A stretch of 64,000 bases of DNA from an uncultured Gammaproteobacteria bacterium (GTDB lineage: Bacteria; Patescibacteriota; Microgenomatia; UBA12405; JAHJSD01), in the NCBI GenBank assembly GCA_964428655.1, contig CAYRYE010000001.1, forward strand, positions 9,328 through 73,327, given 5' to 3'. Shown piece by piece: positions 1 to 38,354 of the stretch (its first letter is position 1; every line of letters starts with the position of its first letter). The notes below the pieces were generated by a model. The model was not told where the DNA came from and did no database searches. It worked only from the letters and a program-made list of their open reading frames with translations. The position numbers and the translations under genes are program-made.

Positions 1-220
1 TAAATTCAGGAGTAATCTGCCAGCCAAATTTAGTTCCCGGTCTAGGGAAAATGCCAACATAAAAACAACCTTCACCATCAATAAAACCCACCAAATAATC
101 ATCAGTTATTTTCTTAACTATCTTGGGAGATAGCTTGCCTAACTGAAAGGATTGACCTTTCCTGCTGGTTGTCTGCACTGATAGCTTTTTCACTTCACTT
201 TTAATTATAACGAAGTAGCC
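1..220 (-). CDS. LAGLIDADG-family homing endonuclease (intron-encoded; partial, C-terminus outside the window, start codon not identified)
   Basis: Minus-strand frame open from a TGA at 221-223 reads ...KKITDDYLVGFIDGEGCFYVGIFPRPGTKFGWQITPEF. LVGFIDGEGCF is a canonical LAGLIDADG dodecapeptide (cf. I-CreI LAGFVDGDGS). Confidence 0.7.
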
Positions 221-282
221 TCAGATACTCCAGAGTTTCCAGCATATAGCCAGATTTAAAGACAGCAAGAACCAATTCGTTT
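1..282 (-). mobile_element. Group I intron (partial; continues beyond window start) inserted in the 23S rRNA gene after ...GAGACAGU (E. coli ~2593 region, the I-CreI-type homing site)
   Basis: Minus-strand 23S sequence GGGTTCAGAACGTCGTGAGACAGT (282-306 rc) is followed, instead of the conserved TCGGTCCCTATCTGCC, by about 280 nt of non-rRNA sequence carrying a LAGLIDADG ORF. The upstream exon ends in U as expected for a group I 5' splice site. Confidence 0.7.
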
Positions 283-994
283 ACTGTCTCACGACGTTCT
301 GAACCCAACTAACGCAGCGCTTTAATGGGCGAACAGACCAACCCTTCCCGACTTCTTCGTCAGGAGGATGCGCCAAGTCGACATCGAGGTCGCGATCCGG
401 GCCGTCAATACGGACTATCGGGCCCGACCACGCTGTTATCCCCGGGGTAGCTTTTATCCGTTAAGTTCCGATACATTCCACAAGTATCGGAAGATCACTA
501 AGACCTGCTTTCACACCTGCTCGACCTGTCGGTCTCGCAGTCAAGTTAGCTTCTGCCTTTATACTTACAGTCCGATTTCTATCCGGACCAAGCTAACCTT
601 TGTACGTCCGCGTTACTTTTTAGCAGACGGCTGCCCCAGCCAAACTGACAACCAGACACTGTCCCAGTTTACGTTTCCAGTAAACATTGGTTAGAGTCAA
701 ACATTCTGAAGGGTGGTATTCCACTGATGCCCGAAGGCTCCCACCTATTCTCGACAATCAAAATATTCTTCCCAACGTCAAGTCTCAGTAAAGCTCCACG
801 GGGTCTATCTGTCCTGCCGCCACAAACCGGCATCTTTACCGGTATTTCAATTTCACCGGGTAGAAGGTCGGAGACAGTTGTTCGGTCGTTAAGCCATTCA
901 TACTGGTCGGAACTTACCCGACAATGGACTTCGCTACCTTTGGACGGTTAGAGTTACCGCCGTCGTTCACCGGGGCTTCGGTTCATTGCCCTCT

Positions 995-1046
995 GGGCGA
1001 GGAAATCCTAAATTCGAATCTCCTTGTCCAAAGGACAAATTCCCTT
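995..1046. repeat. 52-nt exact repeat copy A inside 23S (GCCCTCTGGGCGAGGAAATCCTAAATTCGAATCTCCTTGTCCAAAGGACAAA), replacing a variable helix in domain IV
   Basis: Identical to 2408..2459 by direct reading. Contains a T-arm-like GGAGATTCGAATCTCC palindrome and a TTGTCCTTTGGACAA palindrome. Confidence 0.85.
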
Positions 1047-1707
1047 AACCTTCCGGCACTGGACAGGCTTCAGCCCCTATACTTCCCCTTACGGGTTTGC
1101 AGAGACCTGTGTTTTTGATAAACAGTCGCCGAACAATCTTTAGTTGCAGCCTCGAAAATTCGAGGCAGGGCATCTCCCGAAGTTACGCCCAGCTTTTTTG
1201 CCGAGTTCCTTGACCTCCCTTCTCCCGATCACCTTAGTCTACTCGACTTACCCACCTGTGTCGGTTTGCGGTACGGGTTCTATTACTTCTTTCCGCGAAG
1301 CTTTTCTTGGCACCAGAAATCAGCTGAATCGATCGAAAATTCGACCTCTTGATCAATCTCGCCTTAAAACAAAGCGACGGATTTTCCTATCGCTTCTAGC
1401 TTAATTGCTCAATGCGGCAATTTCACTACCACACTCAACTTATCCCAATGCGTCCCTCCCCAGATAATAACAAAATAATAGAAGGGCTGGAATATTAACC
1501 AGCTGTCCATCGCCTACTCCTGATTCATCAGGACTTGGCTTAGGTCCCGCCTAACCCAACGTCGACGAACGTTGCGTTGGAAACCTTGGGTTTTCGGTGA
1601 ACTGGATTCTCACCAGCTTTTGCTGTTACTTATGCCGGCATTCTCACTTCCCAACACTCCAGTTTGACTTACATCAAACCTTCACTGTCTTGGGAACGCT
1701 CCCCTAC

Positions 1708-1737
1708 CATCCCGATACGTGTAAACACTATCGGGAT
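1708..1737. repeat. 28-nt segment (RNA sense UCCCGAUAGUGUUUACACGUAUCGGGAU) shared identically between the 23S and the 16S (21278..21305)
   Basis: Plus strand here reads atcccgatacgtgtaaacactatcgggatc; its reverse complement equals 16S tcccgatagtgtttacacgtatcgggat. It can fold as an imperfect hairpin. The spurious ORFs 1597..1848 and 21226..21417 share the peptide PDTCKHYR(D/E)L for this reason. Confidence 0.85.
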
Positions 1738-1820
1738 CTCCGTCTTCGGTGGTCTGCTTTAGCCCCGGTAAATTTTCGGCGCAGTTTACCAATCCCAATA
1801 CCCATAAGGATATCGGGATC

Positions 1821-1878
<58 letters not shown>

Positions 1879-2407
1879 TTGTCTTCGATAAACTACTTCC
1901 TTCCCCACTTAGCAATCTCCGACATAATGTCGGAGAGACACTTAGGGACCTTAGACGAGAGTCTGGGATCTTTCCCTTTCGCCTGACCAGCTTAGCCCGG
2001 CCAGACTGACTGCCCTTGTAGAAATCAGAGTATTCGGAGTTTGGTTGGGTATCGAGGATTACTCCCCAGTACTCATCCAGTAGCTCTACCCCTCTGATTC
2101 AATCAAGAACGCTATACCTATATATATTTCGGGGAGAACCAGCTATCTCCGGGTTCGATAGGCATATTGCCTCCAACCACAGGTCATCCGAAGGAATTGC
2201 AGCTCCTACCGGTTCGGGCCTCCTCCCCGACTTCTCGGGGATTCACCCTGCCCATGGTTAGCTCACCCGGTTTCGGGTCTCCCGCATGCGACTAAAACGC
2301 CTTATTCAGACTTGCTTTAGCTACGCCTCCTCCTGACTCATCAGGATTAAGCTTGCCGCAAACGAGAACTCGCCGGCTCATTCTTCAATAGGCACGACAT
2401 TACTTCG

Positions 2408-2459
2408 CCCTCTGGGCGAGGAAATCCTAAATTCGAATCTCCTTGTCCAAAGGACAAAG
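2408..2459. repeat. 52-nt exact repeat copy B inside 23S (domain I variable region)
   Basis: Identical to 995..1046. Confidence 0.85.
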
Positions 2460-2510
2460 CTCTGTCTGTTTGTTAGCAAATGGTTTCAGGTTCTATTTCA
2501 CTCCCCTCCC

Positions 2511-2541
<31 letters not shown>

Positions 2542-3159
2542 ATGCGCTATCGGTCAACAAGAGTATTTAGTCTTGGAGGAGTGGTTCCCCCAGATTCCCC
2601 CGATTTTAATCGGGATACTCAGGAATCCCGCTACCAACCTAATATAATTTCGAATACGGGGCTTTCACCCTCTTTGACGATTCATTCCAGAATCTTCTTC
2701 TATTAATTCGGTCAGGATAAAGCGGAACCCTACAACCGGTCGAAAATTCGACCTTTGGACTATTCCCGTTTCGCTCACCGCTACTAAGAGAATCACTGTT
2801 GTTTTCTTTTCCTTTGGGTACTGAGATGTTTCAGTTCCCCAAGTTACTCTCCCGATATCCTTACGGGTATCGGGATATCTTGTATTACTACAAGATGGGT
2901 TTCCCCATTCGGAGACCATCGGATCAAAGGTTGCTGGCACCTCCCCGATGAGTTTCGCCGCCTTCTGCGTCCTTCATCAGCTCTTGTCACCAAGGCATTC
3001 ACCATTTGCCTTAATACTAAACCTTCTTACCCCCGATATGTGCAGGCACTATCGGAGATAAACCCGGTTGACAACTTGATTTTCAAATCAAATTGAAACC
3101 TTAATCAATTGTTAAAGTGCAATTAAATTAAATAAAATTTATTTTTCAATTCGCTCAAA

Positions 3160-7143: not shown

Positions 7144-7157
7144 TTTCTCACTTATTG

Positions 7158-7489
7158 TGGAGATGCCCCGAGGTGATCGGGGGTCCAAAGAATAACTTTA
7201 AAAACTTCTACAGGCTTAGGCTATTTTTGGTTATTACTGATTAAGGAAAATTGCCAAACCTTTAATCAGGCCGACCGTTTGTTTCTCTCTAATCCTTGGT
7301 CAGAAGACTAAAGAACAGTCCGACAAGTTGACACCGATCTTGCTTCCTCGGACAAAAAGCAAGTCGATGCTAGCTTAAGCTTAAGCGTAAGCTAGGGCCA
7401 AATTATCTTCGGCATATGTTTTGATCCTGTTTTGACTCAACTGATCAATGAGCACCTGCAGTTTTTAAAAGTGCTTTCTCTGTCAAAAC
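7158..7489 (-). ncRNA. ssrA: tmRNA (SsrA), one-piece, immediately downstream of smpB
   Basis: 5' GGGGAUGUCGAG... pairs perfectly with 3' ...CAUCUCC-A, including the G3:U70 Ala identity pair. T-arm CCCCG-AUCACCU-CGGGG. Internal tag reading frame GCC GAA GAT AAT TTG GCC CTA GCT TAC GCT TAA gives AEDNLALAYA*. Canonical smpB-ssrA synteny. Confidence 0.75.
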
Positions 7490-7557
7490 TCGACATCCCC
7501 ATGCTCCGCCGTTGGCGGAGAATTATCAATTTTTAATTATCAATTTTTAAATTAAAA

Positions 7558-21097: not shown

Positions 21098-21112
21098 AGG
21101 ATATTTTTTATA

Positions 21113-22588
<1,476 letters not shown>

Positions 22589-31925: not shown

Positions 31926-32456
31926 ATGACAGAAGGAGGAGAGGTTGGAATAATTGTTACTAGACGTAGAGCTGAGCATTTAGCGGAAGAAGCAAGAGAG
32001 CGAGGGATTAAAGAGGGTAAAGAGGAGGAAAGACATGCAGTGGTTAGGAGATTAGGACCACGCAAAATACAAGATTTATCTAGACAGGTAGAGTTACTTA
32101 GGGAACTTTTATCATCGAATAAAATCTCTGGACTAGAAAGAGAACTTCGCGACCACCAATTAGCAGTGGCTGAAAACAGATTAATAGATCTTAAAAGAGC
32201 ACTTTTTATTAAAGTAGGTAGAGAGGGTTCTAACTTTGGTGATGCAGTTTCATACGACCCTGAAGAGCATGAATTGTTAGATGATGAAAGACCAGCGAAA
32301 GATGTTTCTGTTAATGTTCTTTTTCCTGGTATTTATGACAATGAGACAGAAGAGATTATTATCAAACCAGTTGTTACCTTAAAAGCATTTAGAAAGGAAG
32401 AAATAGCTCTACACGATTATTATGTAGAATTAGCTAAAAAAAAAGGTTGGATTTAA
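31926..32456 (+). CDS. grpE: GrpE-like nucleotide-exchange-factor protein (tentative)
   Basis: AENRLIDLKRAL resembles the GrpE LLPVIDNLERAL helix. FGDAVSYDPEEHELL resembles GxxFDPxxHEA. The size, 176 aa, fits. A strong AGGGAGG ribosome-binding site is upstream. The coding composition is more G/A-rich than neighbours. No dnaK is adjacent. Confidence 0.45.
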   Translation: MTEGGEVGIIVTRRRAEHLAEEARERGIKEGKEEERHAVVRRLGPRKIQDLSRQVELLRELLSSNKISGLERELRDHQLAVAENRLIDLKRALFIKVGREGSNFGDAVSYDPEEHELLDDERPAKDVSVNVLFPGIYDNETEEIIIKPVVTLKAFRKEEIALHDYYVELAKKKGWI

Positions 32457-32558: not shown

Positions 32559-34334
32559 TCAACCTTTTTTTATTGTTGGTTCTATTAGTTTTAGAGTAGT
32601 GTTGGGATAAACCTGTTTGAATTGTTGCCAAGAGGTGCGGTTTTTGCCTTCGAGTTGGATTTCGTCAGGAATAAGTTTGCCTTTTTCTAAATGGGCTTGC
32701 CAGATTTTGAGACGGAGTTTTTTACCTTTAATTTTCACGAAGGTGTAAGTGCCTGGAGAGGGATTAAAAGCTCTAATTTGGTTTAAGATTTGTTTGACTG
32801 GTTTTTTCCAGTCAATTTCTGCTTCTTGTTTATCAATTTTTGCCGCAAACGTTGCTTTTGTATGATCTTGTGGTTTCATGATCCAAGAACCTGGTTTTTT
32901 GACCAAAATGTCTGGCTTAAAAAGTTGGATAAATTTTTTAGTGCCCATCTCAAAAAGCCTTTTGATTAGTTGACCACTGGTTTCGTCAGTTTTAATTTTG
33001 GTTTTAGTTTGAATGATGATTGGACCTGCATCCATTTCTTTGATGATTTTAAAAATTGTGATTCCTGTTGTTTTGTCACCAGTTTTAATGCTTCTGATCA
33101 CTGGTGCCGCCCCTCGCCATTTAGGAAGCAAAGAAGGATGAAAGTTGATAATCATGCCGAACCAGTCAAGCCATTCCTGAGGAATTAAATTGCCATAAAC
33201 GGCAACTATTCCCAAAATCGGTTTCTTCTTTAATTTTTTTTCTGTTTTTTTTAGTGTTTCATGATTTAATTTTTCCCATTTAGCAACAGACAGTTTTTTT
33301 TCTTGACAAAATTGGGCAACTGGCGTTGGCGTTAATTTTTGACCTCGGCCGGCTGGCCGGTCAGATTTGGTAATGACAAGATCGATTTTTATTTTTTCTT
33401 TTAGCAATGTTTTTAAGATTTCTACGGATTCTTGGCTAGAGCCAAAGAAAACAATTGGCTGGGTTTGAAGCGTTTTCTTTTTCGTGTAGCTAAGAATTAT
33501 TTTTTTGGCCTTTTTAGTTGCTATTTTTTTACCTCGAACCAAGGCTGTTGGGCCAATGAAATTAGCCGGTTGGATTAAAATGTCTTTTGGTTGGGATAAA
33601 TTCTCTAAACTTCTATTTTCTTCTTCATTTCGGCCAATGATAATTTTGGTTTTGCCGATCCAAAAATGACGGCCAATTTTTAGTAATCCAGCGTCATTAC
33701 CGCTAAAGCTCGGTTTTTCTTCTTTGAGTTCAAACAATTTTTTGGCAAATTTTATTTCGGTTAAAATACAACCGCCAGCAGGTTGAGGATATTTTAAATC
33801 GATTTTTTTTGCTAGGGCAATTTGTTTTTTCCTACTTCGACCGTGGATGTCTAATAATTTTTCCCGATTGACCCATTTTTTTTCTTCAGGAAGAGTAGGA
33901 GAAAGAAGTTTGGCTGAAAGTGGGCGAAGTAATCGTTTACCCAAACCGGTTTTTTTAGCGATTATATCCAGTGCTTGCCTGTTTTGGGAAAACGGCCTTT
34001 GGCCTAAAACCTCACCAGTAATAACAAAATCAAAACCTTCTTTTTCTAAGATTTTTCTAGCCGTTTTCAGCATCAATAAGTGACAGTCAATGCACGGATT
34101 ACTAGCTTTGCCGTAGCCATATTTTGGCTTTTTAACTATTTCTAAATGTTCGTCTGAAAAATCAATAACTTGATAGGGAATTTTGAGCTGTTTAGCTGCT
34201 TTAATTCCTTTTTCTGGGTTGAAGAAGTAACTTTGGAAAATTAGAGCTTTAACTTTAAGATTTTGCTTTTTAATTAACCAAGCAGCTAAACTGGAATCTA
34301 AACCACCAGAAAGCAACACTAGTACTTTTTTCAT
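32559..34334 (-). CDS. fmt: Bifunctional fusion: N-terminal PP-loop tRNA thiolase-like domain (ThiI/MnmA-type) + C-terminal methionyl-tRNA formyltransferase
   Basis: N-terminal PP-loop LLSGGLDSS, SNPCIDCH, and ITGEVLGQRPFSQNRQALDII...RLLRPL (ThiI-like GExLGQVASQTLxNL...RPL). From about residue 290: Fmt N-domain IVFFGSSQESVEILKTLL...VITKSDRPAGRGQKLTPTPV and catalytic HPSLLPKWRGAAPV. 591 aa, continuous frame. Confidence 0.7.
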   Translation of the reverse strand: MKKVLVLLSGGLDSSLAAWLIKKQNLKVKALIFQSYFFNPEKGIKAAKQLKIPYQVIDFSDEHLEIVKKPKYGYGKASNPCIDCHLLMLKTARKILEKEGFDFVITGEVLGQRPFSQNRQALDIIAKKTGLGKRLLRPLSAKLLSPTLPEEKKWVNREKLLDIHGRSRKKQIALAKKIDLKYPQPAGGCILTEIKFAKKLFELKEEKPSFSGNDAGLLKIGRHFWIGKTKIIIGRNEEENRSLENLSQPKDILIQPANFIGPTALVRGKKIATKKAKKIILSYTKKKTLQTQPIVFFGSSQESVEILKTLLKEKIKIDLVITKSDRPAGRGQKLTPTPVAQFCQEKKLSVAKWEKLNHETLKKTEKKLKKKPILGIVAVYGNLIPQEWLDWFGMIINFHPSLLPKWRGAAPVIRSIKTGDKTTGITIFKIIKEMDAGPIIIQTKTKIKTDETSGQLIKRLFEMGTKKFIQLFKPDILVKKPGSWIMKPQDHTKATFAAKIDKQEAEIDWKKPVKQILNQIRAFNPSPGTYTFVKIKGKKLRLKIWQAHLEKGKLIPDEIQLEGKNRTSWQQFKQVYPNTTLKLIEPTIKKG

Positions 34335-34349
34335 TATTGATGACCAAGT

Positions 34350-34421
34350 GGCAGGGGAGGGAGTCGAACCCTCGGCCTTCGCCTTATGAAAGCGCTGCTC
34401 TAACCACTGAGCTACCCTGCC
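34350..34421 (-). tRNA. tRNA with CAT anticodon (elongator Met or lysidine-modified Ile2)
   Basis: Reverse complement GGCAGGGTAGCTCAGTGGTTAGAGCAGCGCTTTCATAAGGCGAAGGCCGAGGGTTCGACTCCCTCCCCTGCCA. 7-bp acceptor, T-arm GAGGG/TTCGACT/CCCTC, anticodon loop TTCATAA. Confidence 0.85.
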
Positions 34422-34497
34422 TTCGCAACCTCACTGCTTCGGTAGGCAGGTTTGCCTTTTTTTATGGCTTGCTTGCCATAGTTTTAGCGAAGGTGGG

Positions 34498-34571
34498 TGG
34501 ACCCGAGCGGAGTCGAACCGCTGACCTTCCGGATGCAAACCGGGTGCTCTAACCAACTGAGCTACGGGCCC
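34498..34571 (-). tRNA. tRNA-Ala (TGC)
   Basis: Reverse complement GGGCCCGTAGCTCAGTTGGTTAGAGCACCCGGTTTGCATCCGGAAGGTCAGCGGTTCGACTCCGCTCGGGTCCA. G3:U70 Ala identity pair; anticodon loop TTTGCAT. Confidence 0.9.
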
Positions 34572-34623
34572 TCCGATTCGGAGGGCTTGCCCGCCAAACC
34601 GGAGGGCGGGCCCTTACAATTTG

Positions 34624-34693
34624 TTGCGGGGCCAGGAGTTGAACCTGGTCTGTGAGGTTATGGGCCTCACGTGCAGCCGTACACCACCCCGCG
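34624..34693 (-). tRNA. Initiator tRNA-fMet (CAT)
   Basis: Reverse complement CGCGGGGTGGTGTACGGCTGCACGTGAGGCCCATAACCTCACAGACCAGGTTCAACTCCTGGCCCCGCAA. C1xA72 mismatch at the top of the acceptor stem; CGCGGGG start identical to E. coli tRNAfMet; anticodon loop CCCATAA. Confidence 0.85.
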
Positions 34694-34720
34694 GCATGTA
34701 CTGATATTTTATTGTTAAAG

Positions 34721-35086
34721 CTAAAGATTGTCAAATTTAAACTCTGTTCCTATGAATAATTGCCACCATTGTTGCCAGGGAGCGAGAGATTCAAACATTT
34801 GTCCTTTGGATTGGAGTAGAGATAGATTTGGAATTGTAGGTAGAACCAAAATAATTTCATTATCATGAGTCATTCCTAGTTTTTCTCTTGCCTCTCGAAG
34901 AATAAACTCTTCAGTTTGATAGTATTCCTGCTTTTGGGTTAAAAATTGATTTTCTTCTTGAAGTTGATTTAACTCGTTTTGCATTTCCTTGAGCTTTCTC
35001 TTTGCCTTATACCAGGTACGAACCCTTTGGTTTAAACTAATAACCAAACTTAAAAGGATGACTGGTAGAATTAACTTCTTAACCAT
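34721..35086 (-). CDS. ftsB: FtsB/DivIC-like septum-formation initiator (TM + coiled coil)
   Basis: N-terminal TM; heptad-rich LKEMQNELNQLQEENQFLTQKQEYYQTEEFILREAREKLGM is a typical FtsB/DivIC motif. Confidence 0.65.
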   Translation of the reverse strand: MVKKLILPVILLSLVISLNQRVRTWYKAKRKLKEMQNELNQLQEENQFLTQKQEYYQTEEFILREAREKLGMTHDNEIILVLPTIPNLSLLQSKGQMFESLAPWQQWWQLFIGTEFKFDNL

Positions 35087-35132: not shown

Positions 35133-35996
35133 ATGAATTCAGAACTGGCTTTGGAAAATGCAATTGGGAAATTTATTTCTCATTTAGAATCTTTAAAGCG
35201 CTCCAGTAATACGATTGTAGCATATAGGGGCGACTTGAGTCAGCTTGTTGATTTCCTGAAAGGGCAAACAATAGATTTACTAACTCAGGTTGAAACTAGC
35301 CATATTGAAGAGTTTAAAAAGTACTTGACCAAGAAAGGCTATACCCCAAAATCTATCTCCAGGAAGTTAAATTCAGTAAAAAGCCTTTTTAGGTTTTTGG
35401 TTGAGGAGGGAATTCTAGATAGAGATCTTTCCAGAGCAGTTAAACACCCTAAGATCAAAAATGACTTGCCTCGGATACTAAAATCCATAGAGTATCGAGC
35501 CTTACGAGATGTTTGTCGTCATGACAAAAGGACTTTAGCTATTACAGAGCTGATGCTCCAGGTAGGTTTAAGAATTAGCGAGGTGGCCAGTTTACAGTTA
35601 GAAGATGTTGAGGCTGATAACTTGATAATTAGGGCTTATGAAAGCCATTCGCAGAGAAAAGTGCCTTTAAATCGGGCCGTTAAAGAAGCAATAGGAACCT
35701 ACCTAAAAGAACGTTATCAATCAAGATATAAGTTTTTGTTTGTTACTAAAACCGGAAAACAACTCTTGGTAAGAAATATTAGAAGTATTCTTAATCGCTA
35801 TTTTGATAAGGCAGGTCTGCAGGGTGTGAAAGTAAATGATCTTCGCAACACTTTTATTGTTGAACAGTTGTCAGCGGGGGTACCCTTGGACATAATTAGT
35901 AAAATCGTTGGTCACAAAAGGCTTTCCACCACGGAAAGATACTTAAACATGGTTGAAAAGTCAGAAAAAGAAGGAATCAGTCTCAAAGAATTGTAA
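35133..35996 (+). CDS. xerD: Tyrosine site-specific recombinase (XerC/XerD family)
   Basis: Core-binding N-domain; catalytic ...LRISEVASLQLEDV..., HKRLSTTERYLN (the R..H..R..Y tetrad is visible); 287 aa, typical Xer size. Confidence 0.8.
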   Translation: MNSELALENAIGKFISHLESLKRSSNTIVAYRGDLSQLVDFLKGQTIDLLTQVETSHIEEFKKYLTKKGYTPKSISRKLNSVKSLFRFLVEEGILDRDLSRAVKHPKIKNDLPRILKSIEYRALRDVCRHDKRTLAITELMLQVGLRISEVASLQLEDVEADNLIIRAYESHSQRKVPLNRAVKEAIGTYLKERYQSRYKFLFVTKTGKQLLVRNIRSILNRYFDKAGLQGVKVNDLRNTFIVEQLSAGVPLDIISKIVGHKRLSTTERYLNMVEKSEKEGISLKEL

Positions 35997-36011
35997 TAGG
36001 AAGCTTTTTTC

Positions 36012-38354
36012 TCATACTTGGGAACGACGAGTGATTTCTGCCTCTACCACTGAAGCAGGCTGGCCATATTTTAAGACGCTTAATCTTTTAATAGTTTTAG
36101 CCAATTTGGGATTTCTTCTTTTTTTCTCAATTTCTATATCCTTAGTGGTATCCATGGAAAATGGCAGTACGGGCTCGTTATCGATAACTGTTTTTATGTA
36201 AGCATGGAACCGTTCTACGTTAAGAAGATCTTGTTCGCTAAAGACAGGTTGGAATTCACGAGCCAAGTAATTAGCATCAGAAACACCAACCTGAAAAGAC
36301 ACCACTGTTCCCACATTGCCGAAAATGGCATTTTTAACCTCTTCTTCCATTTGGCCAATAAATTGGTTGGCTACGGTAAGATTCAGGCGATACTTTCTGG
36401 CCTCGGAGAGAATTTGGGCAAAATCAGGGGTAGCAAAGTTTTGAAACTCATCAACATAAAGATAGAAATTGCGCCTCTGATCTTCCGGTATATCTTGGCG
36501 GCTCATGGCGGCCATAAGGATTCTGGGAACTAGGATTAGTCCCAAGAAGGAAGAATTTTCTTCGCCGATTTTTCCCTTAGCCAAGTTAATAATTAAAATT
36601 TTGCCCTCGTCCATTACCTTGCGGAAGTCAAAAGCTGATTTTGATTGACCGATGATGTTGCGCATCATTTTGTTAGTTACAAATCGGCCGAATTTGGAAA
36701 CAATGTAATCCAATGTTTCAGATTTGTGAAACTCAGCAGTATGGGCGATTTGTTCGGTCCAGTATTCTCTAACAATAGGGTCTTTTACTTTTGGTAGAAT
36801 TCGTTGTAGATATGGCCCGCCTGGATTTTGAAGAATTTTTACCACTTCCATAAAAGTTGTTCCTGGCACACTCATGGCAGTTAGCATGGCGTTTCTGATC
36901 GCATGTTCAAACCGGGGGCCAACAATACCGGTTTTATACGGATCGTAAAGTTTGTACATCAGATTGATTATTGCGGCAGAGACGAAGTGTTTTTGATCTT
37001 CAGTTTCTACTTCTAAAAGGTTAAGTCCAATTGGTCTTTCTGTTTCTGAAGGATCAAAATAAATTACATCTTCGGCCCTCTCGGGAGGGATGTATTCTAG
37101 AATTTGTTCGGCCAAATCATGGGGGTCGATTAAACAAATCCCTCTACCTGCTTTAATATCCTGGATAAGCATTTCCTTCATTAACTCTGTTTTGCCTGCG
37201 CCTGTTTTGCCGATAATGTAGAAATGTCTCTGCCGATCTTTTTCCTGGATATAGATTGGCTTTTCCACTCCTCGGTAACCGCTTTTACCTAAATACAAAC
37301 CAGATTCGGGAAGATTGGACGGCGGCGGAGCGGGTTTAGCTTTCAGACAGTAAACATTAGGAGTTTCTACTGTTTTATTGGGGAGATGGAAGATTGAAGC
37401 CAGTTCTTCGCTGTTTAAAATGGTTTTTATATTTCGCCAGATAATTGGTTGATAGCGGTAAATAAAGTCAATCATAAAAGAATAACGGAAACGGATTTTC
37501 TTTTCCGAAAAACCATTCCAAGGAGATTCAAATTGAGCAAAACTTGATTTGATGTTGTTGAGCTTGGCTTTAGCAATATCCATTGTTGGAGCGCAAACAA
37601 CAATTCTGATTGAAGTTTCGAATCCTGGTTTACTGCACTTGGACTCGATCGCTTCCAAAGTTCGAGCGTCCACTTTAAAACTGGCTTTTTCTGGGTCAGC
37701 CTCTTGTTTTTTGGTGTCACTGACATATGTTTTGCCTGACTTTTGCCAGTTGATATCAGTTGGGCTTATTAAAATCTGGATGGCCGCTCCCTCGTTTTCT
37801 TCTAATTTAGCCATAGCGGAAGTGATTGCTGAAAGAGGATCAGTGGGAAGATCTTTGTAGGTTTTTAAAGGATAAAAGGATTCTTTTTTAAACTTTAGCC
37901 AGGCGTAGCTAATTTTTCCGCTTTTGGAAAAGATATTATACTCATCGACTTCTTTTATCTCGGCATCAGGGTAGCCGCCATGAATTTGCCGCTCTACTAA
38001 TTCGCGCAGTTTTTGAGAGCAGGAGACAAAGAATTTAATTTCTCCATCAGTACTGACGATCTCAAAAGAAATATGGGGTTGACTTTTAAGGAATTTAAAT
38101 TTACCTCCGGTTTTGATTGAATAGAGAGAGGCCATTATTTGTTCCATGGCATCGATTTTCGTCTCATTGTCTCGGGGAACAGCGATTCTAAACAGGACGG
38201 ACTTTAAAGCCTCTTCTTCTCTTTTACGCCATCGCCACCAAAGAACAAAACTATAAAATAATAATCCAAGACCCAATAGTGTTATAACGGCAATTAAAAA
38301 GAGAACAATATAATAGAATAAGGTACTAGTTAGTTGGTTAACAGTTTGATCCAC
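36012..38354 (-). CDS. virD4: VirD4/TraG/TraD-family type IV coupling protein (FtsK/HerA-superfamily ATPase with N-terminal TM anchor)
   Basis: N-terminal TM helices; Walker A YIIGKTGAGKTELM; Walker B LYVDEFQNFATPDF; long N-terminal periplasmic/cytoplasmic domain as seen in other CPR-type coupling proteins. Confidence 0.8.
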   Translation of the reverse strand: MDQTVNQLTSTLFYYIVLFLIAVITLLGLGLLFYSFVLWWRWRKREEEALKSVLFRIAVPRDNETKIDAMEQIMASLYSIKTGGKFKFLKSQPHISFEIVSTDGEIKFFVSCSQKLRELVERQIHGGYPDAEIKEVDEYNIFSKSGKISYAWLKFKKESFYPLKTYKDLPTDPLSAITSAMAKLEENEGAAIQILISPTDINWQKSGKTYVSDTKKQEADPEKASFKVDARTLEAIESKCSKPGFETSIRIVVCAPTMDIAKAKLNNIKSSFAQFESPWNGFSEKKIRFRYSFMIDFIYRYQPIIWRNIKTILNSEELASIFHLPNKTVETPNVYCLKAKPAPPPSNLPESGLYLGKSGYRGVEKPIYIQEKDRQRHFYIIGKTGAGKTELMKEMLIQDIKAGRGICLIDPHDLAEQILEYIPPERAEDVIYFDPSETERPIGLNLLEVETEDQKHFVSAAIINLMYKLYDPYKTGIVGPRFEHAIRNAMLTAMSVPGTTFMEVVKILQNPGGPYLQRILPKVKDPIVREYWTEQIAHTAEFHKSETLDYIVSKFGRFVTNKMMRNIIGQSKSAFDFRKVMDEGKILIINLAKGKIGEENSSFLGLILVPRILMAAMSRQDIPEDQRRNFYLYVDEFQNFATPDFAQILSEARKYRLNLTVANQFIGQMEEEVKNAIFGNVGTVVSFQVGVSDANYLAREFQPVFSEQDLLNVERFHAYIKTVIDNEPVLPFSMDTTKDIEIEKKRRNPKLAKTIKRLSVLKYGQPASVVEAEITRRSQV

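Follow-up and report, generated by a model that had tools for sequence, protein, structure and literature searches.

A ThiI+DUF814-family module fused to methionyl-tRNA formyltransferase beside an initiator tRNA gene in Patescibacteria

The fusion gene and its reading frame

A stretch of 64,000 nucleotides (nt) of contig CAYRYE010000001.1 (GenBank assembly GCA_964428655.1, positions 9,328 to 73,327), here called the window, carries on its minus strand a single uninterrupted open reading frame (ORF) that begins with ATG, spans 32559..34334 in the ORF listing, and encodes 591 amino acids (aa). The protein joins a ThiI-like PP-loop domain and a predicted RNA-binding domain, NFACT-R_2, to methionyl-tRNA formyltransferase (Fmt). 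The gene lies in a genome of the Patescibacteria, or candidate phyla radiation (CPR), next to genes for tRNA-Met, tRNA-Ala, and tRNA-fMet (ARAGORN and Rfam), as a first-pass annotation of the sequence had stated. It is considered probable that this is a bona fide clade-restricted fusion, which places fmt beside a predicted thiolase of the 'ThiI+DUF814' family and encodes a bifunctional tRNA enzyme with both halves active.

The motifs on which that annotation relied are all present in the frame: LLSGGLDSS (aa 7-15), SNPCIDCH (aa 78-85), and ITGEVLGQRPFSQNRQALDII...RPL (aa 105-139) in the N-terminal half, and IVFFGSS (aa 294-300) and HPSLLPKWRGAAPV (aa 399-412) in the Fmt half. Its description of the first ~290 residues as one PP-loop ATPase holds in part: a ThiI/MnmA-like PP-loop is indeed present but covers ~205 aa and is followed by the NFACT-R_2 domain, which had been overlooked. 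Four domains rather than two are recognised by Pfam. The N-terminal matches, both partial, are to ThiI (PF02568, aa 3-139) and tRNA_Me_trans (PF03054, aa 2-108); the Fmt half matches Formyl_trans_N (PF00551, aa 294-470) and Formyl_trans_C (PF02911, aa 499-552). These are the four families that the annotation had pointed to, and they are joined by NFACT-R_2 (PF18297, aa 221-307). The protein contains four cysteines in total, three of them being C81, C84, and C189.

The same architecture recurs in other CPR genomes. A search with the full-length protein retrieves 26 further clusters at 90% identity (584-653 aa; 55-68% identical to the window protein; from JGI, ENA, NCBI, and Logan assemblies), all with the same domain order. 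Among these 27 fusions, mean pairwise identity is 65% for the PP-loop domain, 53% for NFACT-R_2, 56% for the N-terminal and 58% for the C-terminal domain of Fmt; constraint is comparable on all segments, with the PP-loop domain being the most conserved. The linker has a mean pairwise identity of 24% and zero invariant columns, and the alignment is collinear across the junction. An AlphaFold2 (AF2) model of the full-length protein has a predicted local distance difference test score (pLDDT) of 90.7 and a predicted template modelling score (pTM) of 0.84, the latter suggesting a defined arrangement of the domains relative to each other.

Homologues begin at the same MKK(A/V)L..LSGGLDS position as the window ORF, and in JGI the gene (P0121, 586 aa) is called from a start five codons downstream of that ORF's ATG. 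Methionine occurs only at positions 1, 88, 394, 434, 463, and 486; because the stretch between the PP-loop/NFACT-R_2 half and Fmt is empty of methionine, no in-frame ATG separates the two, as had been claimed. Merging of two neighbouring genes through a sequencing or assembly error, or production of two polypeptides through an internal start, might be suspected from the A-rich junction with its homopolymer runs and from one relative, L087:2046-3943, a frameshifted copy in which the frameshift lies inside the Fmt part. However, the same continuous frame is found in all 27 clusters, from four independent data sources, and a check at the DNA level finds the ~30 codons 5′ of the Fmt domain free of in-frame ATG, GTG, and TTG, both in the window and in five of the seven loci examined. 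No internal start is conserved; nor, among the loci examined, does any relative possess thiI-NFACT-R and fmt as adjoining separate genes, and close standalone relatives of the Fmt half are lacking, with the nearest being 40% and the next 38% identical. On these comparisons the artefactual and two-polypeptide readings are rejected as effectively refuted, leaving a genuine fusion.

Table 1. Features of the fusion gene and its tRNA neighbourhood, in window coordinates
Feature	Position	Strand	Basis or remark
Whole fusion gene, 591 aa + stop (PP-loop, NFACT-R_2, linker, Fmt)	32559..34334	(-)	ORF, domain matches, 26 further clusters
ThiI-like PP-loop (N-type ATP pyrophosphatase) domain, aa 1-205	33720..34334	(-)	Pfam, profile, Foldseek
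SGGLDS, aa 9-14	34293-34310	(-)	In PP-loop domain
C81xxC84	34083-34094	(-)	In PP-loop domain
GRSRKKQ	33822-33842	(-)	In PP-loop domain
C189	33768-33770	(-)	In PP-loop domain
NFACT-R_2 (DUF814-type) predicted RNA-binding domain, aa 206-283	33486..33719	(-)	PF18297; invariant G221-R222-H223
Junction/linker TKKKTLQTQ, aa 284-292 (9 aa)	33459..33485	(-)	Variable; free of stops and start-like codons
Fmt N-terminal (Rossmann) domain, aa 293-480	32895..33458	(-)	PF00551, E 7e-35
Fmt-specific loop 1 ITKSDRPAGRGQKLTPTP	33321-33374	(-)	In Fmt N-terminal domain
N397-x-H399	33138-33146	(-)	
SLLP	33123-33134	(-)	
D435	33030-33032	(-)	
Fmt C-terminal (oligonucleotide/oligosaccharide-binding-like, tRNA-binding) domain, aa 481-591 + stop	32559..32894	(-)	PF02911, Foldseek
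Initiator-type tRNA-Met(CAT)	34623..34693	(-)	ARAGORN; Rfam tRNA 43.7 bits; C1xA72, U8, 3-bp D stem, CCCAUAA loop
tRNA-Ala(TGC)	34496..34571	(-)	ARAGORN, Rfam
Elongator-type CAT tRNA (Met, or Ile2 if lysidinylated)	34348..34421	(-)	ARAGORN, Rfam
Promoter-like TTGACA-17-TAAAAT (11/12)	34706..34734	(-)	Consensus scan; ~13 nt upstream of initiator tRNA

The C-terminal half is a formyltransferase

The last ~300 residues had been described as a complete Fmt, a description with which profile, alignment, and fold agree. The curated equivalog TIGR00460 (NCBIfam) is matched over aa 294-548 with 211 bits against a cut-off of 201.5, and alignment to E. coli Fmt (1fmt) equates N397-F-H399, S401-LLP, and D435 with E. 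coli N108/H110/D146. Loop 1, the Fmt-specific insertion used to read the acceptor stem of the initiator tRNA, is present as TKSDRPAGRGQKLTPTPV and aligns with TQPDRPAGRGKKLMPSPV of the E. coli enzyme. H399 and D435 are invariant among the fusions, N397 is conserved in at least 90% of them, and SLLP is conserved. In Foldseek comparisons, the modelled C-terminal half aligns with whole Fmt chains, including the Fmt-tRNA complex 2fmt, over ~310 columns with target-normalised TM scores of 0.73-0.80.

Compared with E. coli Fmt (1FMT/2FMT; TIGR00460), the C-terminal half thus keeps loop 1, N-x-H, SLLP, the aspartate, and both domains, but lacks a methionine start of its own, carries an insertion of ~10 aa in the N-terminal domain, and has a C-terminal domain ~20 aa shorter. 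The shortening is reflected in the PF02911 match, which covers profile positions 1-50 of 100. Nor does it lie in a def-fmt operon. Residues 293-591 are therefore identified, from sequence and predicted fold, as a complete and canonical methionyl-tRNA formyltransferase.

The N-terminal half belongs to the ThiI+DUF814 family

Burroughs and Aravind (2014; PMC4075521) defined the 'ThiI+DUF814' family by a ThiI-like PP-loop with a CxxC plus an internal cysteine, an elaborated loop bearing GRxRxxQ, and a C-terminal DUF814/NFACT-R domain with a conserved arginine in place of THUMP, rhodanese being absent. Its phyletic distribution is almost mutually exclusive with that of THUMP-containing ThiI, and it was predicted by bioinformatics to be an alternative 4-thiouridine(8) (s4U8) synthase (PMC4075521). 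The N-terminal half shows every one of the listed features and likewise lacks THUMP (no Pfam match) and rhodanese; by sequence it is a member of this family. It differs from the described members in being extended by a complete Fmt and in having no TusA or desulfurase (IscS) gene among those called within 10 kb either side, a neighbourhood that is a frequent association of the family rather than a requirement. Standalone homologues of the N-terminal half (~305 aa, 55-65% identical) are widespread and number in the thousands, and many family members are named MnmA by JGI.

The residues characteristic of the family are conserved. C81, C84, and C189 are invariant in the fusions and in 73 family members; G165, R168, and Q171 of the GRxRxxQ loop (G165-R-S-R168-K-K-Q171) are invariant in both alignments, and SGGLDS is conserved in at least 90% of sequences in each. 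Across the 27 fusions, D83, H85, and R222 are also conserved, and 52 of the 205 columns of the PP-loop domain are invariant. NFACT-R_2 is matched with 49 bits against a Pfam cut-off of 26.9, and the C-terminal part of a family profile matches the NFACT-R domain of RqcH (7aqc, residues 459-525, E 3.4e-6) and FbpA (5h3w).

The relationship of the PP-loop domain to characterised thiolases is more distant. Canonical ThiI (TIGR00342, NCBIfam) is matched with 48.3 bits against a cut-off of 264.5, through profile positions 174-312 (the PP-loop) alone. The MnmA models give 42.3 bits against 284 (NF001138) and 38.5 against 237 (TIGR00420), with the match ending at aa 108. The family profile finds B. 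anthracis ThiI (2c5s) best, at 9.5e-10, followed by MnmA at 2.3e-7. Foldseek, queried with a model of the N-terminal half alone (AF2, pLDDT 94.8), matches MnmA, LarE, TtuA, and ThiI about equally and weakly, LarE and MnmA being ranked above ThiI.

That ranking, the curated ThiI and MnmA cut-offs that are not reached, the presence of NFACT-R domains in RqcH/NEMF, and the adjoining tRNA-Ala gene would all suit a PP-loop enzyme that is not a tRNA thiolase, namely a sulfur or amide transferase whose substrate would be a small molecule or another RNA (LarE-like, QueC-like, or related to ribosome-associated quality control (RQC) through NFACT-R). This is judged very unlikely, since the family carries an RNA-binding domain and is phyletically exclusive with THUMP-ThiI (PMC4075521), the module has two different tRNA enzymes as fusion partners (Fmt and, as described below, Sua5/TsaC), the NPCxxC motif aligns with that of the tRNA thiolase MnmA, and Pfam detects no NFACT-N domain of RQC factors.

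The closest biochemical parallels to a predicted tRNA thiolase of Fe-S type are MnmA and an archaeal ThiI. Compared with MnmA, the 2-thiouridine-34 (s2U34) synthase (2DER, 9HLN), the PP-loop is shared and NPC-x-x-C aligns residue for residue with Fe-S-type MnmA; however, the alignment is limited to the first ~110 aa, and the central and C-terminal barrel domains of MnmA are absent. In the rhodanese-less TtuI/ThiI of M. maripaludis, CXXC + C binds a catalytic [4Fe-4S] cluster, through which sulfide can be used (PMC9825150). Both this enzyme and the window protein have a PP-loop with CXXC + C and lack rhodanese, but the archaeal protein has N-terminal NFLD and THUMP domains where the window protein has a C-terminal NFACT-R_2, and the cysteine spacing is 105 residues in the window protein against 80. 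By analogy with [4Fe-4S]-dependent tRNA thiolases of the TtuI, TtuA, and NcsA type, the invariant CXXC + C of the window protein, which matches the motif described in PMC9825150, would hold such a cluster through C81, C84, and C189, and the N-terminal half would be an Fe-S-dependent thiolase.

Occurrence and origin of the fusion

The two activities are rarely combined on one polypeptide, and the first-pass annotation was right to call this unusual. An HMMER scan of 1.84 billion representatives at 50% identity yields one full-length match (P0125), with all others covering one half only, and among ~593 related loci on GTDB contigs (one genome per species) the fusion is present in L001 and L002 only. 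Queries with either half on its own list no full-length fusion, not even the window protein, so a negative result from a half-length query should not be taken as absence of fusions; an initial impression of 'no fusion' from the N-terminal half was dropped once the full-length query and the exhaustive representative search had found them. The combination of thiolase and Fmt is mentioned neither in PMC4075521, which does not cover Patescibacteria and in which formyltransferase occurs zero times, nor in the literature searched for the fusion. The protein is a domain architecture unreported so far, built from two known enzyme families.

In a neighbour-joining tree, the N-terminal halves of the fusions are monophyletic with respect to their 72 closest standalone relatives (26 of 40 bootstraps). 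All fusion loci have a common synteny, which runs through a DUF8128/type 4 secretion system (T4SS)-like ATPase, an Xer-type integrase, DivIC, tRNAs, the fusion, DUF5657, a 223-aa protein, FtsH, and SpoIID. This synteny, together with monophyly of the N-terminal half, the single 50% cluster, and the two loci among ~593, indicates that the fusion probably arose once, in one lineage of the ultra-small Patescibacteria.

Descent from an operon of thiI-NFACT-R and fmt is not supported: of 78 loci without the fusion, just three (L018, L022, and L051, labelled Deltaproteobacteria or Desulfobacteraceae) have fmt in their flanks, 4-5 kb from standalone thiI-NFACT-R and on the opposite strand, which may be coincidence. 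None of the 78 shows the synteny of the fusion or a tRNA-Met neighbour. A syntenic standalone fmt in sister lineages was also considered, but the nearest Fmts come from non-CPR genomes, either within a def-fmt operon, as with the 40%-identical one in an unrelated genome, or in unrelated surroundings, and are thus uninformative.

Names in the databases do not reflect the architecture. The fusion appears as 'methionyl-tRNA formyltransferase', 'tRNA-specific 2-thiouridylase', 'MnmA', or 'tRNA-uridine 2-sulfurtransferase'. The records of L001 and L002 bear the title 'uncultured Gammaproteobacteria bacterium', a label that looks wrong, since both share the gene content and synteny of the Patescibacteria loci.

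tRNA neighbourhood and transcription

Three tRNA genes lie directly upstream of the fusion on the same strand, and the ATG follows the nearest of them by 13 nt. The tRNA furthest upstream carries C1xA72, a mismatch characteristic of bacterial initiators, and it is nearly identical to the initiator tRNA next to the fusion in five further loci (L001:43-115, L002:113-185, L081:3984-4054, L083:4115-4187, and L084:5724-5796). The initiator tRNA of this clade is atypical, with C33 replacing the near-universal U33 in its CCCAUAA anticodon loop, two of the three canonical G-C pairs in the anticodon stem (A29-U41, G30-C40, and G31-C39), and a low Rfam tRNA score (43.7 bits). U8 is present in all three neighbouring tRNAs.

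In the window, the fusion is probably transcribed with the tRNAs from a promoter upstream of tRNA-fMet. Co-transcription is plausible because of the promoter-like site, the 13-nt spacing, and the lack of any minus-strand terminator-like hairpin between tRNAs and ORF in the same scan. An arrangement of this kind is known from the E. coli metY-nusA-infB operon, in which an initiator tRNA gene is transcribed ahead of genes for translation-initiation proteins. The two are alike in having the initiator tRNA ahead of a protein gene but differ in the protein genes, and co-transcription in the window is deduced from the spacing and promoter match.

Wherever a locus still has sequence upstream of the fusion, the tRNA-fMet/Ala/Met cluster lies beside the gene, in varying arrangement. 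In the window, L002, and L084 it immediately precedes the fusion in the same orientation; the initiator tRNA precedes the gene by 30 nt in L001; and the cluster is partly dispersed in L086. Because the 78 standalone loci have no tRNA-Met neighbour or adjacent fmt, the tRNA link is, as far as the compared sequences go, a property of the fusion locus and its clade rather than of the ThiI+DUF814 family.

Further genes of the region can be listed briefly. A 176-aa ORF at 31926-32456 (+), between the fusion and the DUF5657 gene, has no Pfam match and looks like a window-specific insertion, as it is missing from this position in related loci. Upstream of the tRNAs, 35133-38354 encodes an Xer-type tyrosine recombinase (287 aa) and a 780-aa DUF8128/TraG/VirD4-like ATPase, both conserved in L081-L084, and T4SS-pilin-like genes occur ~10 kb downstream in the source contig. 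The genes for 23S rRNA (215-3024 (-)) and 16S rRNA (21109-22588 (+)) are unlinked, lying ~18 kb apart on opposite strands. A transfer-messenger RNA (tmRNA) gene at 7155-7500 (-) encodes the tag peptide AEDNLALAYA.

Other fusions and derivatives of the module

The PP-loop/NFACT-R_2 module has acquired other partners in other Patescibacteria, independently of the Fmt fusion. In P0044 and P0162 a C-terminal Sua5/TsaC domain, of the N6-threonylcarbamoyladenosine (t6A) pathway, holds the position that Fmt holds in the window, whereas in P0093 and P0155 a haloacid dehalogenase (HAD) hydrolase is fused to the N terminus. P0156 and P0173 have an N-terminal extension of ~210-235 aa to which no function is assigned. 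Fmt in turn is fused to peptide deformylase in P0452 (Def-Fmt). These proteins have other partners and belong to other lineages, and none joins the thiolase module to Fmt. The Sua5/TsaC and HAD fusions of the module point to a tRNA substrate, and to a role that would be general rather than initiator-specific.

Four clusters considered as possible split genes were not confirmed as such: P0001 is the frameshifted copy, P0148 and P0149 are derivatives without the PP-loop, and P0377 is a gene cut by a contig end. In addition, the first 34 codons of the fusion recur as a short duplicate (59% identity) at L086:5518-5613, ~400 nt 5′ of the gene.

Proposed activities of the fusion protein

As a bifunctional enzyme, the protein would contain two independently active sites, both acting on tRNA. 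A tRNA uridine would be adenylated by the PP-loop domain and its oxygen exchanged for sulfur, for which the predicted [4Fe-4S] cluster is the most likely source, while NFACT-R_2 would fill the RNA-binding role of THUMP in canonical ThiI. By the published prediction for the family, the thiolated position would be s4U8. The C-terminal half would formylate Met-tRNAfMet using 10-formyl-tetrahydrofolate. The most likely benefit of the fusion would be fixed co-expression of two tRNA-directed housekeeping activities, together with an extra tRNA-binding surface for Fmt.

Several observations weigh against this interpretation. Sequence and fold give no decision between a ThiI-like and an MnmA-like N-terminal half. 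Searches of the literature on ThiI+DUF814 biochemistry and on s4U in Patescibacteria yielded the 2014 paper alone, and thiolation, the modified position, and the Fe-S cofactor of the family are all deduced from sequence and by analogy. In one fusion cluster, P0127, the catalytic asparagine of N-x-H is replaced (ILVLHPSLLP) and RWRWSAP stands in place of KWRGAAP, so its Fmt half may be impaired around window residues 393-412. P0148 (L091:1913-3106) is a 397-aa NFACT-R_2+Fmt protein without the PP-loop, encoded directly after an M3 peptidase gene, and P0149 (L088:685-1779) is a 364-aa partial NFACT-R_2+Fmt protein after an unrelated 192-aa ORF, albeit in a layout that may reflect a chimeric contig. 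Because such PP-loop-deleted derivatives occur, the thiolase part appears from these sequences to be dispensable in some lineages. Finally, the tRNA cluster is inverted in L081, L082, and L083, where another gene stands between it and the fusion (one of ~640 aa in L081/L082, one for an M3 peptidase in L083); co-transcription is thus not a conserved feature.

Retention of NFACT-R_2 in the PP-loop-deleted relatives hints that this domain has become useful to Fmt. Taken further, the N-terminal half might be catalytically retired and serve Fmt merely as an extra module for tRNA binding or recruitment, which the somewhat shortened tRNA-binding domain of Fmt would also suit. This appears improbable, as the PP-loop is the most conserved part of the protein and, unlike in degenerate domains, SGGLDS and the three cysteines are invariant or nearly so across the 27 fusions.

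An active N-terminal half could also be dedicated to the initiator, in line with the channelling that the first-pass annotation had suggested. Both sites would then work on one tRNA-fMet in a coupled or ordered manner, with tRNA-fMet-specific thiolation promoting or licensing formylation. By analogy with 2fmt and with ThiI-RNA complexes, both halves may bind tRNA near its acceptor/D-stem side. The constant proximity of the fusion to tRNA-fMet, the persistence of NFACT-R_2 joined to Fmt in proteins without the PP-loop, the high pTM of the whole protein, and an initiator tRNA that is unusual (C33, A29-U41, and a 3-bp D stem) yet keeps U8 are all consistent with this. However, the N-terminal half has thousands of standalone homologues, and in 78 loci these show no link to fmt or tRNA-Met; elsewhere the module has Sua5/TsaC or HAD as its fusion partner; and tRNA adjacency is accounted for by inherited synteny, which inversions and insertions break. 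A dedicated initiator-maturation enzyme is thus regarded as unlikely, and there is similarly only an outside chance that NFACT-R_2 and the C-terminal domain of Fmt clamp one tRNA-fMet, with thiolation (at U8 or another uridine) coupled mechanistically and kinetically to formylation. Two independently active tRNA-directed sites remain the favoured interpretation.

Significance for Patescibacteria and the ThiI+DUF814 family

The ThiI+DUF814 family, which is widespread and provides the main ThiI-like protein of Patescibacteria, has had its function rest on prediction since 2014. Fusion of the module to Fmt, and elsewhere to Sua5/TsaC, constitutes 'Rosetta-stone' evidence for a tRNA substrate and nominates the tRNA-fMet of this clade as a concrete candidate. 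The fusion also shows the consolidation of translation-related enzymes in reduced genomes, and it exposes an annotation problem in which a 590-aa fusion is named in public records after one activity.

If the two activities are not coupled, the protein is an ordinary co-expression fusion; if they are, it would be a new link from tRNA thiolation to translation initiation. Should coupling be real, modification of a tRNA would serve these reduced bacteria as a licence or identity element in translation initiation, and the fusion would provide the first experimental handle on the ThiI+DUF814 family.

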